The notes below the pieces were generated by a model. That model did not search any database. It was not told where the DNA came from and was given only the letters and a program-made list of their open reading frames with translations. The translations under genes and the position numbers were made by a program. 30,007 bases of DNA from a virus (Duplodnaviria > Heunggongvirae > Uroviricota > Caudoviricetes). This document shows positions 2,436 to 30,007 of the stretch, in pieces (within the stretch, counting starts at the first letter, position 1; each line of letters begins with the position of its first letter). Location of the stretch: IMG/VR virus record IMGVR_UViG_2667527770_000007, one strand, 5' to 3'.

Positions 2436-3632
<1,197 letters not shown>

Positions 3633-3885: not shown

Positions 3886-4119
3886 CTGTAGCACCAATCA
3901 TAACTATCTGTTTTAGCAAGCATTAACCGCATTCACTAAGTTATAGTTGATGGCACAAACAGAAAGTTGATGCATGATGTTGTCATGCGTATGTCACAAA
4001 TACGGCACAACAATCTTCAAATATGTAGACACACATCCACAGGAGAGCACAAAGCCTTGCAATACAGTGCAAAGCCTTGTGTGTCTCAGTTTTGTCCTGT
4101 GTGCCAGATATTGAATGGC

Positions 4120-4722
4120 CTACGCCTCCGGCAGTTCAGGCCAGATGACATCCGGCGCGGTGCTGGTATCTGTTGCCGTCACCGCGTCAATGTAATCCAG
4201 CACAGCGTTAAGGCGGGTTGTTTCTGCTTGCGTCAGCTGCCGCCCGGCCCGTAATTTCAGCTGAATCAGACTAATGGAAGCCATTGCAGCATCAATCAGT
4301 GACTGGCGTTGGATTTCTGCCGCGTCCACTGCGGCGCTATATTGTGCCTCAGTATCCGTCACCCATTTCTCACCATCCCATTTATCATATGGCGTTAACG
4401 GGGCGATAGTGGTTGTATTTTCAGGGTAATCACCCAGAGCTGTGATTTCTTTCGATTCTCCTGTTTCGGTGCTATAGATGATTTCACCGCGATGGTCTGG
4501 CACATATTCCCATGAGTTAAAATCTGCAGAACGGCAGATTGCATAACCAGCTTTGTTTGAGCCAGGAGCATCTAAACAGGAATGCGCCGGAATACCGACA
4601 CCCACAGCAAGATACTCAGTTGATGTGGAAATATATCCCCGCGTTTCTCCGTTGTAGTTATAAACGTTAATAAAGCCGGGTTCCGTGGCAATAAATTCAC
4701 TGTTTAATTTTGCCTGTGTCAT
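4120..4722 (-). CDS. Tail fibre assembly protein (Tfa chaperone)
   Basis: 200-aa ORF with the conserved Tfa-type C-terminal region (...KWDGEKWVTD...AETTRLNAVLDYIDA...), overlapping the tail-fibre stop by 1 nt (TAATG). Confidence 0.8.
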   Translation of the reverse strand: MTQAKLNSEFIATEPGFINVYNYNGETRGYISTSTEYLAVGVGIPAHSCLDAPGSNKAGYAICRSADFNSWEYVPDHRGEIIYSTETGESKEITALGDYPENTTTIAPLTPYDKWDGEKWVTDTEAQYSAAVDAAEIQRQSLIDAAMASISLIQLKLRAGRQLTQAETTRLNAVLDYIDAVTATDTSTAPDVIWPELPEA

Positions 4723-26641: not shown

Positions 26642-26980
26642 CTATTTCCCTGAATTTACGACGAAACTGCTCGAGCGGACTGAAGCATTCATGTTCATAG
26701 CCTTCACGGAGGTAGATAACCCGTTGTGTTTCCGGCTCCCAACGAATGACTCTGACGGGCACTCCGTAGTGATCTTTGAACCAGCGGTTAACTTGTCGCA
26801 AAGGACTGTCTCCTTCTGCCGGTTGAAATCACCCACAGCCCACTCTGCAAAGCTGTGGGTTACAATTTCCCTGTCACCTGGTACATTCACTGCATAGCAA
26901 TACTCCACCTTCGCTTTTCCACCCGGTACAGGAAGCGCAATCAGTTGCGAGCGACGGTAGTGTGTTGTTAAACTGTTCAT
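26642..26980 (-). CDS. Hypothetical protein, probably frameshifted (C-terminal half better encoded in the overlapping frame 26589-26801)
   Basis: 112-aa ORF whose C-terminal 50 aa are low-complexity and Ser-rich, while the overlapping frame gives a protein-like sequence ([39 protein letters not shown]...) that only begins at a TTG. Confidence 0.4.
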
Positions 26981-27561
26981 GCGTTAGTTTCTCCACAACC
27001 AGAAGCAATCGACGCCACGACGCCCGGAGCTGCACACTCGCGGGCGTTACTCTTTTCCGGCGCACAAAAAACACGAAATAACAGTGTTAAATGCTCCTGC
27101 CACTTCGCCATTACTTGGTAGCTGTTCTCTTCGATTTGCTCACGCTCAGCTTGGTCAATAACTCCATCAGCAGTTGCCTTGCGTAAGTACTGGGAATGCT
27201 TGCCAATCCATTCTATTGACTCCATCAGCCGCTGATTAATGTCACCATTGTCAATGTCATCAATGACCACCAGCGGCACAAACACCCCATTACTACGACG
27301 GGCTATTGCATCTGTTACATGCCTGGTACCACTGGCATCCTGTAAAACCATGGCCCACTCAAGTGGAAAAATTTGATCCCCACCGCTACGCAGTCTGTTA
27401 TGCAATTGATCTTTTGCTGGGGTGATATCATCAGATTTATACAAACCAAGAATTTCTGCTGCTTCCTCATAGCCATGAGGTAAATCAGCAATCGTTCTTC
27501 GTATTGCTGCCACCAGCCATGCTGGTTGTTTATCAACTTTCCATTCAGGTTCTTTACCCAC
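26977..27561 (-). CDS. CII-position early regulatory protein (possibly YdaT-like)
   Basis: 194-aa ORF immediately downstream of the Cro-like gene. Assignment is positional; family membership not verified. Confidence 0.35.
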
Positions 27562-27588: not shown

Positions 27589-27786
27589 TTATGCCGCAGC
27601 ACTGTTAGTCTTTTGATATAAAGACACGTCAACTTTCAGTTTCCCGTTAGTAATTTTTTCTAACTGGTACGCTCGGCCTTCAGGAATAATCTCAGGCCAC
27701 TCTGAAACAGACGGATGCTTAATACCTAGGGCTTCGGCGGTTTTACAAACTCCGCCGAAATAATTAATCACGTCGGATTTCCGCAT
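27589..27786 (-). CDS. cro: Cro-like repressor (YdaS/Cro-type HTH)
   Basis: 65 aa (...FGGVCKTAEALGIKHPSVSEWPEIIPEGRAYQLEKITNGKLKVD...), divergent from cI across an operator region. Confidence 0.7.
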   Translation of the reverse strand: MRKSDVINYFGGVCKTAEALGIKHPSVSEWPEIIPEGRAYQLEKITNGKLKVDVSLYQKTNSAAA

Positions 27787-27818: not shown

Positions 27819-27883
27819 ATGTAGGATATCCAACATACCAATGTCAAGAATCCTACATGGGCATGTGGTAGGATTGCCTACAT
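27819..27883. promoter_or_regulatory. OR operator region: three operators with half-site ATGTAGGA (OR1 27819-27836, OR2 27841-27858, OR3 27863-27883); PR for cro on the minus strand (-35 TTGACA at 27843-27848, -10 TACATT at 27819-27824); probable PRM with cI starting at or next to the transcript 5' end
   Basis: Near-perfect 18-bp palindrome ATGTAGGATATCCAACAT and two related sites at ~22-bp spacing between the divergent cro and cI starts; consensus hexamers with 18-bp spacer. Confidence 0.7.
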
Positions 27884-28535
27884 GATGAACATGAGTGATC
27901 GTATTCGCCAAAGGCGAAAAGAACTGAACCTGACACAACAAGCACTGGCTGATTTGACTGGTGTGAACCGTGTCACGGTTACTGGATGGGAAAAGGACGA
28001 CTACCAACCAAATGGAGCCAACCTTCAAGCCCTAGCCAACGCACTTAAATGCGATCCTCTGTGGCTTGTTAGCGGAAAAGGCTCGCCTGAACCAAAGATA
28101 AATCTAAAACCTGAAATATTCGCAGTTAAAAAAGTCCCCCTCATCTCGTGGGTTCAGGCGGGTTCATGGACAATGACGGAGCCTGGTGTCAGGAAAGAAG
28201 ATGCTGAAGAGTGGGTTTATACTACCGCCCTTGTATCAGAAATGGCATTTGCACTACGGGTCCGTGGTGATTCAATGACCAATCCCCTCGGCTCACCATC
28301 GATACCAGAAGGTTCTATCGTTATCGTAGAGCCAGATATTATTGATACAGAGTGTATTAACGGAAAAATCGTTGTTGCCCATATCAATGGTGGGCAAGAA
28401 GCGACACTCAAAAAATTTGTTGAGGACTGGCCGAACAGGTATCTCGTCCCACTAAATCCTAACTATAAAACTATTGAATGCGGTGAGAACTGCAGAATAG
28501 TTGGTCTTGTCAAACAAGTAATAATGGATTTTTGA
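27882..28535 (+). CDS. cI: CI-type prophage repressor (HTH_XRE N-terminal domain + S24 LexA-like peptidase domain)
   Basis: 217 aa; HTH region (LNLTQQALADLTGVNRVTVTGWEKDD) and S24 autocleavage domain with GDSM Ser motif and downstream Lys (ATLKKF). Confidence 0.85.
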   Translation: MMNMSDRIRQRRKELNLTQQALADLTGVNRVTVTGWEKDDYQPNGANLQALANALKCDPLWLVSGKGSPEPKINLKPEIFAVKKVPLISWVQAGSWTMTEPGVRKEDAEEWVYTTALVSEMAFALRVRGDSMTNPLGSPSIPEGSIVIVEPDIIDTECINGKIVVAHINGGQEATLKKFVEDWPNRYLVPLNPNYKTIECGENCRIVGLVKQVIMDF

Positions 28536-28555
28536 CACATCTTCCTCACTATCGC

Positions 28556-28582
28556 AAAACCGGGGTATCCCCGGTTTTTTTA
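28556..28582 (+). terminator. Intrinsic terminator downstream of cI
   Basis: AAAA-CCGGGG-TAT-CCCCGG-TTTTTTT: perfect 6-bp GC stem, 3-nt loop and 7-T tract, 20 nt after the cI stop; A-tract upstream suggests it may act in both directions. Confidence 0.8.
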
Positions 28583-28597
28583 TGAGCCTATCTTTTT

Positions 28598-28651
28598 ATG
28601 TAGGATAACCAACATAAACTCTTGACACTCACATGTTGGATATCCTACATT
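28598..28651 (+). promoter_or_regulatory. OL/PL: two operators (28598-28615 ATGTAGGATAACCAACAT; 28633-28650 ATGTTGGATATCCTACAT) flanking a rightward promoter (-35 TTGACA 28622-28627, 18-bp spacer, -10 TACATT 28646-28651)
   Basis: The second operator is the exact reverse complement of OR1; promoter architecture is identical to PR. Seen directly in sequence. Confidence 0.7.
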
Positions 28652-28661
28652 TGTTTTTAGA

Positions 28662-28676
28662 GTTGTGGTGAATGCG
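28662..28676 (+). repeat. 15-nt motif GTTGTGGTGAATGCG, copy 1 (at the predicted start of the PL transcript), followed by hairpin GCGCA-GGCTGA-TGCGC
   Basis: Exact 15/15 direct repeat with copy 2 at 29317-29331. Confidence 0.5.
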
Positions 28677-28768
28677 CAGGCTGATGCGCGAAAGACATTG
28701 CAGCTATTGCGGAAAAGAGCTGTTCGGCGGGGCCATTAAACGCCCGTATCTGGAGGTTAAAGAACAAA

Positions 28769-29044
28769 ATGAAAGTCCAGATTTTAAACAATAGTGGTGA
28801 AGTCGTTTGGTCATACGACATAGCCGCTCCTGTAGATCAGAGCGGCGATAGCTGGACCAATGGGAAACATCAGATTATGGCTGGAGTTGTATTCTCTTTA
28901 CGCCGTGCTTTGGAACAGGCTGAAGTATTTCCATCAGACCCTGAATGGAAATGGCCTTTTTCTATTTGTCCAAATTCGGAGAGTACATTTCAGAAAATTG
29001 GTCAGAAAGTCGCACTCGAAGAGCATCAGCCAACTGTTTCCTGA
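28769..29044 (+). CDS. Hypothetical protein, first sizeable ORF of the PL (early-left) operon
   Basis: 91-aa ORF with GGAGG 12 nt upstream; its 3' end overlaps the convergent ORF 28962-29207 by 83 nt, so the C-terminal extent is uncertain. Confidence 0.4.
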   Translation: MKVQILNNSGEVVWSYDIAAPVDQSGDSWTNGKHQIMAGVVFSLRRALEQAEVFPSDPEWKWPFSICPNSESTFQKIGQKVALEEHQPTVS

Positions 29045-29207
29045 TTTTTTCAGGTAGCTCGTCGGCATCGCAGAAACAACAACGCTCGATCATGTTGAAA
29101 GCCGATTCGTAGAACTGTTTCTGCTGAGTGTCGCTGAGACAGGAAAAGAGCGACGTTACGATGATTTTATTAATTGCATTATCAAGTTCTTTTTCATCAA
29201 AAGTCAT
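28962..29207 (-). CDS. Hypothetical protein encoded antisense to the PL operon
   Basis: 81-aa ORF (MTFDEKELDNAINKIIVTSLFSCLSDTQQKQFYESAFNMIERCCFCDADELPEK...) with a good RBS (AAAAGGAAAA, 6 nt before ATG). Confidence 0.45.
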   Translation of the reverse strand: MTFDEKELDNAINKIIVTSLFSCLSDTQQKQFYESAFNMIERCCFCDADELPEKIRKQLADALRVRLSDQFSEMYSPNLDK

Positions 29208-29316
29208 TTGATTTTCCTTTTATGTATACGGGCTTAAAAGGATACCACCGAGCCTGAAGTGGTGAAAAGACAGGCACATAACAGCTAAGTATTTTCAACC
29301 AAAGAGAATCCTTAGC

Positions 29317-29331
29317 GTTGTGGTGAATGCG
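29317..29331 (+). repeat. 15-nt motif GTTGTGGTGAATGCG, copy 2, at the start of a structured non-coding region
   Basis: Exact repeat of 28662-28676. Confidence 0.5.
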
Positions 29332-29463
29332 GCTCAGCGCACGCGGGTTAAGGTTGAGGCTGACAGTCGACCTTCTGTGGATACCCACCCGTCTGGTGTG
29401 CAACCTTCGCCAGGCACCGGGAGGCACCCGGCACCACAACTTTATGCTGTGTGTAGTCCCGGC

Positions 29464-29596
29464 GGTACCAGTTTGTACCCTTGCTTCCGGCTGGTACCGT
29501 CCTTTTTACAAAACAGAGAAGAGCATCACCGGACGACGGGCTCATAACCCAATCCATCCGGGCGGCTGCCACCGCAGGTGTTCTTCTCTGTTTTGT
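29464..29596 (+). ncRNA. Candidate structured RNA element: 8-bp stem (GGTACCAG, 29464-29471 / 29491-29498) followed by a 15-bp perfect inverted repeat (ACAAAACAGAGAAGA 29508-29522 / TCTTCTCTGTTTTGT 29582-29596) enclosing a 59-nt GC-rich insert
   Basis: Inverted repeats seen in sequence. The region has no convincing coding frame (the ORF-track frame 29327-30007 has an Arg/Cys/Trp-rich, non-protein-like N-terminal 100 aa). Function unknown. Confidence 0.35.
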
Positions 29597-29644
29597 GGAG
29601 AAACTAATCGGCCTTGCAGGGTCGATATGATGAGGAGCAGCAAA

Positions 29645-30007
29645 ATGGCTAGCGAACGCAGTACTGATGTGCAGGCATTTATCGGGGAGCTGGACGGCGG
29701 CGTATTTGAAACCAAAATCGGCGCAGTTCTCAGTGAAGTCGCTTCCGGTGTGATGAACACGAAAACCAAAGGTAAGGTCTCACTCAACCTGGAAATCGAA
29801 CCATTTGATGAGAACCGTGTGAAAATCAAACACAAACTCTCATATGTTCGCCCGACTAACCGCGGGAAAATTTCCGAAGAAGACACCACCGAAACGCCGA
29901 TGTATGTCAATCGCGGTGGTCGCCTGACTATTCTGCAGGAAGACCAGGGACAGTTACTGACTCTTGCCGGTGAACCTGACGGAAAACTCCGCGCAGCAGG
30001 TCGTTAA
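29645..30007 (+). CDS. Hypothetical early protein (120 aa), function unknown
   Basis: ATG at 29645 preceded by GAGGAG with 6-nt spacing; stop TAA at 30005-30007. The ORF-track N-terminal extension to 29327 is rejected. No family recognised. Confidence 0.55.
   Translation: MASERSTDVQAFIGELDGGVFETKIGAVLSEVASGVMNTKTKGKVSLNLEIEPFDENRVKIKHKLSYVRPTNRGKISEEDTTETPMYVNRGGRLTILQEDQGQLLTLAGEPDGKLRAAGR

Follow-up and report, generated by a model that had tools for sequence, protein, structure and literature searches.

In phage lambda, the early-left promoter PL and nutL are followed by N (complement 35037-35438), then by the convergent gene sieB (34482-35036) and by ral. In phage P22, the sieB/esc/sas system of the PL region comprises an exclusion gene altered in its expression by an antisense RNA, together with a phage-encoded escape factor (PMC12197685, PMC7067206). 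Two prophage pairs, sieB-ydaF of Rac and ymfJ/ymfI of e14, have been scored as convergent excludons (PMC12288877), and ymfJ shows late induction during the SOS response. Among the genes found in this type of position, sieB is the sole characterized one. Here, we analyzed a convergent pair of small open reading frames (ORFs) in a 30,007-nt stretch of viral DNA (IMG/VR record IMGVR_UViG_2667527770_000007, Caudoviricetes; "the window" denotes this whole stretch), which is an SfV-like lambdoid prophage of Escherichia coli, 99% identical to SfV and vB_EcoM-720R4 over the region. The two ORFs, denoted MKVQ (MKVQILNN...) and MTFDE (MTFDEKEL...) after the first residues of their products, lie directly 3' of a repressor gene and PL; MKVQ is co-directional with PL, and MTFDE converges on it tail to tail. 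The pair is a new occupant of the lambda N/sieB slot, a known type of accessory-gene slot; it is no artefact and most probably not a toxin–antitoxin pair. On balance, it appears to constitute a two-gene accessory cassette heading the PL operon in a lambdoid prophage of the SfV/e14 type, in which mutually exclusive convergent expression would set what may be an accessory or exclusion factor against an early partner.

Conservation of both reading frames

A first-pass annotation of the window had described a 91-aa plus-strand ORF and an 81-aa minus-strand ORF with 83 nt of 3' overlap, each preceded by its own ribosome-binding site (RBS), and the ORF coordinates bear out this arrangement (Table 1). 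Both RBSs are present: GGAGG lies 12 nt before the plus-strand ATG, a long spacing here, although other lineages have GAGGA at 7 nt, and AAGGA lies 7 nt before the minus-strand ATG. Public records name either ORF and never both, the SfV record annotating only the plus-strand ORF (orf33) and vB_EcoM-720R4 and RefSeq/PGAP only the minus-strand one, a conflict that the following comparison settles.

The first protein searches returned near-identical E. coli sequences and divergent homologues of the plus-strand protein, including some from Salmonella, and the DNA around these divergent homologues contained a convergent minus-strand homologue of the 81-aa protein every time. A profile search with these sequences added copies in Salmonella, Klebsiella oxytoca, K. 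variicola, K. michiganensis and Yersinia, each with a plus-strand partner. Both ORFs occur together, well in excess of chance expectation, in all nine lineages examined, namely the window and eight others that include Salmonella, Klebsiella and Yersinia; in the eight further lineages, the two proteins are 40–65% identical to those of the window, with conservative substitutions. In eight of the nine lineages, counting the window, exactly 439 nt and no indels lie between the two starts, and this geometry is kept even in a lineage in which the MKVQ domain is fused behind another domain. Identities amount to 58–64% for MKVQ homologues, and to 56–64% for the MTFDE homologues of Salmonella, Klebsiella and Yersinia. 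Distant MKVQ forms share 34–46%, and a convergent MTFDE-like gene is likewise present at two of these loci. An exhaustive MKVQ profile search found just 17 representatives among 1.8 billion proteins. The MTFDE profile scan of one genome per species gave no confirmed locus, profile scans of viral contigs gave only near-identical E. coli copies in the best 80 loci, and scans with the distant relatives P0064 and P0068 returned nothing useful. The cassette is present in 408 of 5426 complete E. coli genomes (about 7.5%), and several MKVQ/MTFDE cassettes reside in Rac-like prophages with ydaS/ydaT and recE.

The alignment of the pair carries a separate signal for each frame. In columns 1–192, variation peaks at the third position of the plus frame (0.41 versus 0.16 at the second), and the ratio of nonsynonymous to synonymous variation (pN/pS) is 0.34; in columns 277–439, it peaks at the third position of the minus frame (0.48 versus 0.16), with a pN/pS of 0.27. 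The wrong-strand control frames gave 1.72 and 1.37. Moreover, all 43 near-identical E. coli haplotypes retain both ORFs at full length. The frame-specific third-position variation and the conserved proteins therefore indicate that both ORFs are protein-coding genes under purifying selection. The first-pass annotation had allowed that one ORF might be spurious and had proposed a dN/dS-type comparison as a check; this comparison gives each frame a signal of its own and refutes that option. On sequence grounds, both ORFs are real, co-inherited prophage genes, which adds two small protein families, confined to Enterobacterales prophages, to the real but uncharacterized genes.

Nature of the overlap

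The overlap exists mainly because the plus-strand ORF has no stop until well inside the minus-strand gene. In a sliding-window analysis of eight lineages, the plus-frame signal persists to column ~210 (residue ~70) and is then lost, and the minus-frame signal begins at column ~211; the minus-strand ORF ends at columns 194–212 across lineages. The selected part of MKVQ corresponds to about 28769–28980 (residues 1–70), and the remainder is a variable tail, predicted with a local distance difference test score (pLDDT) of 40–51. If the overlap were under selection as dual-coding sequence, with two functional protein tails (e.g., for translational or structural coupling), this would agree with the presence of an ORF overlap in every lineage examined (74 to >176 nt outside the window), with the fixed 439-nt distance, and with columns 226–255, which are conserved at all three codon positions (VALEE on the plus strand, ALRERL on the minus strand) and are in themselves ambiguous. 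However, the mean divergence of the overlap (0.29) is no lower than that of the single-coding parts (0.27–0.28), and the minus frame dominates from column 211 onward. The plus-strand stop wanders between lineages, falling at column 276, 282, 333 or 369 or beyond column 439, and in the distant locus L183 the plus frame lacks VALEE whereas the minus frame retains ERLIERL. Selected dual coding is thus unlikely, save perhaps over some 30 nt, and the overlap looks like a tolerated read-through tail of MKVQ into the 3' end of MTFDE.

Setting and exchange of the cassette

A cI-like repressor gene marks the immunity region of the window and the direction of its early-left (PL) operon. In all related loci, the pair lies directly 3' of the repressor gene, and MKVQ is co-directional with early-left genes (kilR, gam, recE, ydfE and yfdP/yfdQ). 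Conservation between lineages is bounded on the left by the MKVQ RBS and on the right by a point ~75 nt past the MTFDE ATG, and within this block MKVQ has no promoter of its own. The sister phage Lys8385Vzw possesses the same repressor, PL and leader, without the cassette and without the structured S1/S2 element described below; its sequence (L308 1191–1729) matches window positions 28530–28747, with identity up to that point, and continues directly with the terminator and yfdP region at 29461–29720. Since it joins 28747 to 29461, this locus represents the empty site and defines the recombination junctions. At the left junction, the first 15 nt of the RNA leader located downstream of the cassette are repeated after PL (28662–28676), where they start a second leader type that the cassette interrupts. 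A 40-aa ORF with a CxxC motif (MRRLMRERHCSYCGKEL..., 28672–28794, plus strand) lies in this PL leader and runs into the MKVQ start; it has no family match and is probably not a gene, since it overlaps the leader-RNA fragment.

Other genes occupy the same position elsewhere. E. coli K-12 matched the cassette region solely over ~50 nt past the MTFDE start, and this match led to e14. Viral contigs were searched with a pattern composed of a minus-strand gene start, its RBS and GATACC. Further minus-strand genes in the slot begin with MTKEEKILY (63 aa), MTKEEFVSY (66 aa) and MTQFVARIEM (93 aa), and a second cassette in locus L009 has one beginning with MPSYFIRVEM (93 aa); by eye, the products of the latter two resemble YmfI. 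A convergent plus-strand ORF is present in all three new cassette types inspected, and the S1/S2 element lies beyond all of them. At least four unrelated minus-strand gene families are found in the slot.

In L009, an MTFDE homologue and the 93-aa gene that is YmfI-like by eye stand in tandem (3439–3530 and about 4050–4140), both antisense, and each has its own copy of S1/S2, the copies differing by compensatory changes. In L037, L206, L210 and similar loci, a 68-aa plus-strand gene accompanies the 63-aa MTKEEKILY gene, and the first 15 MKVQ codons remain (MKVQILNNNCEVVWA, followed by a stop); this remnant is evidently the scar of a cassette replacement by recombination inside the plus-strand gene. 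An N-terminal domain beginning with MEFKDLP (P0064 and P0065, L182 3001–3579; L194; L009 3572–3772) is fused to the MKVQ domain in some prophages; elsewhere, this domain forms a separate PL-proximal plus-strand gene or the plus-strand partner of the MTKEEFVSY cassette. These arrangements suggest a pool of small early proteins that may be shuffled in the slot.

Structured elements at the 5' end of MTFDE

The S1/S2 element stands beside the 5' end of the convergent gene in the window, lambda, e14 and Rac. Its two helices are interleaved and have the topology of an H-type pseudoknot. Across 15 distinct variants, 98% of the cells hold standard pairs and three pairs show compensatory changes; none of 500 shuffles reached the observed score, and slid controls were 17–44% paired. 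For e14, published Term-seq data (PMC7815308, supplementary files 1 and 3) put the dominant 3' end of the PL strand at MG1655 1201423(-), 43 nt upstream of ymfH. The e14 sequence is identical here, and this end is equivalent to window position 29277, 2 nt past S2; it has a non-significant Rho score (1.95) and an intrinsic-terminator score of 1.18 (PMC7815308). In the ymfI direction, a 3' end lies at 1201911(+) and a Rho termination region at 1202011(+) (Rho score 6.6), inside the antisense ymfJ, and opposing transcripts are present in uninduced cells (PMC7815308). No Term-seq 3' end is listed for the Rac sieB region, and ymfI, ymfJ and ymfH are all absent from an in vitro promoter map (ROSE). 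In our reading, the S1/S2 element may form or protect the 3' end of the immediate-early PL transcript.

A second hairpin, one arm of which is the complement of the MTFDE Shine–Dalgarno sequence (29215–29242), appears in the minimum-free-energy fold of most of 16 variants on both strands, and the pair beside its AAGGA core covaries, being U-A, C-G or G-C depending on the lineage. Assignment of the functional strand of the two elements by folding energy failed, as the energies are similar on both strands. The candidate MTFDE promoter is an extended -10-like motif, TGnTAnnnT, in which all 15 SfV/e14-type variants retain T1, A2 and T6 of the hexamer and a single one lacks the TG.

Properties of the two proteins

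Both proteins are small, soluble, acidic and hydrophilic, with isoelectric points (pI) of 4.95 for MKVQ and 4.56 for MTFDE. AlphaFold2 predicts MTFDE as a three-helix bundle (helices 5–21, 26–46 and 53–75; pLDDT 74), and MKVQ is predicted to form a β-hairpin and then helices, and contains invariant Trp, Asp, Gly and Pro residues. PHROG 3195 matches MKVQ residues 1–91 (8e-64) and PHROG 3311 matches MTFDE residues 1–81 (3.1e-55), both being families of unknown function. Neither protein has a significant match in Pfam, NCBIfam or PADLOC, or in PDB sequence-profile and fold searches. The CCFCD cysteine cluster pointed out in the first-pass annotation is indeed present (residues 43–47), but it is not universal: most lineages have CC[FY]C, the two most distant, L182 and L183, have HCRFC and HFYCV, and a single Cys is common to all lineages compared. 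Because the cluster lies within a predicted helix and varies in distant lineages, a metal site is unlikely to be essential to MTFDE. We also considered MTFDE as a member of the SieB family and rejected this, since it has no SieB family match in Pfam, PHROG, NCBIfam or PADLOC and no significant fold match.

The first-pass annotation had further raised toxin–antitoxin-like regulation. On such a view, a small toxic protein would be neutralized by its partner protein or by an antisense RNA. The strict co-inheritance of the genes and a PL transcript fully antisense to MTFDE would be compatible with such a module, as would the neighboring ydaS/ydaT-type genes with "toxin" Pfam names and the covarying hairpin capable of sequestering the MTFDE Shine–Dalgarno sequence, a feature typical of type I toxin mRNAs. 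In contrast, a type I system requires a hydrophobic toxin peptide, and no such peptide is present: the maximum Kyte–Doolittle value over 19 residues is 0.80–0.89 for the two acidic proteins. The genes are convergent, unlike type II operons, and no toxin–antitoxin domain was found in Pfam, NCBIfam or PADLOC. In addition, the Cys cluster varies in distant lineages and the overlap does not behave as conserved dual-coding sequence, and the presence of at least four unrelated minus-strand genes, plus sieB of lambda and Rac, points to a cargo slot and not to an addiction module. This proposal thus finds no support here, and we regard it as decidedly improbable.

The location of MKVQ in the N position, ahead of an intrinsic terminator and of an element that forms a 3' end, with no N-like gene noticed elsewhere in the region examined, might indicate a functional counterpart of lambda N that antiterminates past both sites and belongs to the core regulation, not to the cargo. 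This is very improbable, because MKVQ is acidic and has no arginine-rich N-terminal motif, Lys8385Vzw, which shares the repressor, PL and downstream genes, lacks the cassette, only a minority of E. coli genomes carry it, and unrelated plus-strand genes fill the slot in sister phages; MKVQ likewise has no Pfam match as an N-type antiterminator, and nut sites were not searched systematically. Finally, the notion that only one ORF is a gene, its counterpart on the opposite strand being open by chance, to which the one-sided public annotations and the frequent openness of antisense frames in coding DNA lend some appeal, is barely tenable given the own-frame and opposite-strand pN/pS values, the protein identities in nine lineages and the full-length retention of both ORFs.

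Proposed expression of the pair

MKVQ has no promoter of its own within the conserved block and would therefore be read from PL, so that it would be made only after inactivation of the cI-like repressor. In the lysogen, MTFDE would be expressed, presumably from its candidate promoter, and its transcript would run antisense into the MKVQ gene. Upon induction, PL would drive MKVQ, and the PL RNA would cover the whole MTFDE mRNA in antisense before ending, or being trimmed, at S1/S2 just past the MTFDE start. Since the ORFs overlap by 83 nt, the two transcripts must overlap if both are made. The PL RNA could switch MTFDE off by transcriptional interference, duplex formation or both, so that only one of the two genes would be expressed at a time, in the manner of an excludon. 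We infer the MTFDE promoter and this mutual exclusion.

The position and orientation of the genes further prompt a tentative assignment, in which MTFDE would act in the lysogen as an accessory factor, of the kind that mediates superinfection exclusion or abortive infection, and MKVQ would be an early lytic factor that may counteract it. P22 sieB/esc/sas is a precedent for this logic, as it combines an escape factor and an antisense RNA with an exclusion gene expressed in the lysogen. Control of an exclusion gene had been mentioned in the first-pass annotation; the anatomy of the locus fits it, in terms of the N/sieB and ydaF/sieB slot, the orientation and the S1/S2 element, and the regulatory part is inferred from the homologous e14 locus.

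Several observations weigh against this account of an exclusion cassette under convergent control. SieB is a membrane-associated protein of about 190 aa, whereas MTFDE has 81 aa and is soluble, and neither MKVQ nor MTFDE resembles SieB, N or defence families in Pfam, PHROG, NCBIfam or PADLOC. Transcript ends have been mapped at the e14 analogue only. The acting strand of S1/S2 is ambiguous: Term-seq puts the 3' end on the plus strand, yet in four variants an A-C of the plus strand corresponds to G-U on the minus strand, and the thermodynamic z-scores of the folds are unremarkable (about -1.0). The candidate MTFDE promoter scores 8/12 on its hexamers, below the promoter-scan threshold, and its TGnTAnnnT motif has no equivalent upstream of sieB in either lambda or Rac. 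If this motif is the promoter, the arm that sequesters the Shine–Dalgarno sequence would lie outside the mRNA. Lastly, the single-nucleotide polymorphisms within E. coli (synonymous to nonsynonymous, 8:17 and 6:11) are weakly informative, being too shallow for selection.

Neighboring features

The coordinates of the pair and of the surrounding features are compiled in Table 1. The hairpin 3' of the repressor gene (28556–28581), at a position where the SfV record annotates a rho-independent terminator, is probably a bidirectional terminator; it could shield the repressor gene from minus-strand transcripts leaving the cassette.

Table 1. Positions of the pair and of neighboring features in the window
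Feature	Position	Strand	Description
MKVQ gene	28769..29044	+	ATG, 91 aa; SfV orf33; PHROG 3195; first gene of PL transcript
MTFDE gene	28962..29207	-	ATG, 81 aa; PHROG 3311; convergent with PL
Tail-to-tail ORF overlap	28962..29044	both	83 nt in the window
cI-like repressor gene	27882..28535	+	Pfam HTH_3 PF01381 (1.1e-15), Peptidase_S24 PF00717 (3.7e-25)
P22_Cro gene	27589-27786	-	Pfam; divergent from repressor
CII-like gene	26977-27561	-	Pfam; divergent from repressor
GC hairpin	28556..28581	both	CCGGGG-TATC-CCCGG, A run before, T run after; read from sequence, 3' of repressor gene
PL-like promoter	28622..28651	+	TTGACA-18 nt-TACATT; promoter scan 10/12; operator-like repeats around
PR-like promoter	27847-27818	-	Promoter scan; mirror image of PL-like site
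5' fragment of PL leader RNA	28662..28747	+	Starts with GTTGTGGTGAATGCG (repeat at 29317); left recombination junction of cassette
S1/S2 structured element	29244..29277	both	Interleaved helices, H-type pseudoknot topology
S1 helix	29244-29248 / 29259-29263		ACCAC / GTGGT; helix of the element
S2 helix	29252-29256 / 29271-29275		GCCTG / CAGGC; helix of the element
Shine–Dalgarno hairpin	29215..29242 (29215-29222 with 29235-29242)	both	TCCTTTTA / TAAAAGGA; one arm complementary to MTFDE Shine–Dalgarno sequence
Extended -10-like motif	29247-29239	-	TGGTATCCT (TGnTAnnnT; TGGTAnnnT); candidate MTFDE promoter
Structured leader RNA (STnc100-like)	29295..29510	+	Non-coding; upstream of yfdP-like gene (29645 onward); context, not part of the pair
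Leader closing helix	29317-29325 / 29432-29440	+	GTTGTGGTG / CACCACAAC; 9 bp
Intrinsic terminator	about 29461-29507	+	End of leader, ahead of yfdP-like gene

Downstream of the cassette, the structured leader RNA gives an Rfam STnc100 (RF02076) score of 40.5 bits (E = 1.3e-6), below the gathering threshold of 47, and is 77% identical to Salmonella phage ST64B. Its e14 equivalent, annotated as the ORF ymfH, has Term-seq 3' ends at 1201257(-) and 1201195(-) (PMC7815308). This leader could be an antitermination or attenuation RNA. Its identification with the HK022 put RNA was dropped, as no HK022 record occurs among the 40 of 65 blastn records listed.

On the other side of the immunity region, a GC hairpin (GACGCCCGGAGCTGCACACTCGCGGGCGTT, 27019–27048, plus strand) lies antisense to the 3' end of the CII-like gene. 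Its e14 counterpart matches at 29 of 30 nt and coincides with one of the strongest regional Term-seq 3' ends, at 1203751(-) (scores 1.4e7 to 5e7), antisense to ymfL. By analogy, this hairpin looks like a counterpart of the lambda OOP antisense RNA.

Comparison with known systems

The e14 locus shares its backbone with the window. It comprises a LexA-family repressor gene (ymfK), PL, and the convergent ymfJ (plus) and ymfI (minus), which overlap by 63 nt; the S1/S2 element is identical to that of the window, and the same STnc100-like leader follows downstream. The genes themselves differ. Homology of MKVQ or MTFDE to YmfJ or YmfI was rejected in all four combinations (hhalign probability ≤0.3%), and YmfJ is basic (pI 9.1) whereas MKVQ is acidic.

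In Rac of K-12, racR is accompanied by ydaG and ydaF, both co-directional with the early-left operon, and by the convergent sieB, with a 4-nt overlap. A covarying copy of S1/S2 (GCCCGG/CCGGGC with ACCAC/GTGGT) lies upstream of sieB. This arrangement resembles the window, although the genes are others and two short plus-strand genes take the place of one.

Lambda shares the order of PL, a co-directional first gene and a convergent second gene, but N and sieB abut with a 0-nt gap, whereas the window pair overlaps. Upstream of lambda sieB, TGTGCCTGTCTTTTAACCACATCAGGCTCGGTGGT (lambda 34393–34427) is identical at 33 of 35 positions to the minus strand of the window, in the same orientation; the distance from the element to the convergent ATG is about 85 nt for sieB and about 37 nt in the window. 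This lambda copy of S1/S2 probably lies in the tL1 terminator region. Neither N nor SieB of lambda is homologous to the window pair, for which Pfam and PHROGs show no signal of either family. The P22 escape protein is encoded within sieB, whose reading frame it shares, and sas is an RNA of 105 nt, whereas the partner in the window is a separate convergent gene.

Extending these comparisons, we speculate, with little confidence at this stage, that the stretch from PL to S1/S2 is a diversity hotspot in which Enterobacterales lambdoid prophages swap a lysogen-expressed antisense effector together with a PL-driven partner. MTFDE/MKVQ, YmfI/YmfJ and at least two further pairs would then be exclusion or abortive-infection systems with self-immunity, switched by convergent transcription, and the pseudoknot-capable S1/S2 element would have two roles, providing the 3' end of the immediate-early PL RNA and a portable boundary for the cassettes. 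Should the antisense genes turn out to serve exclusion or defence, as sieB does, the slot would provide a simple rule for finding new ones, with e14 of K-12 as a ready model; if they do not, the pair is an ordinary moron. Independently of this speculation, the comparisons show the lambda N/sieB position to be a general slot, delimited by PL and by a conserved structured element, that accommodates several unrelated convergent pairs, including ymfJ/ymfI.

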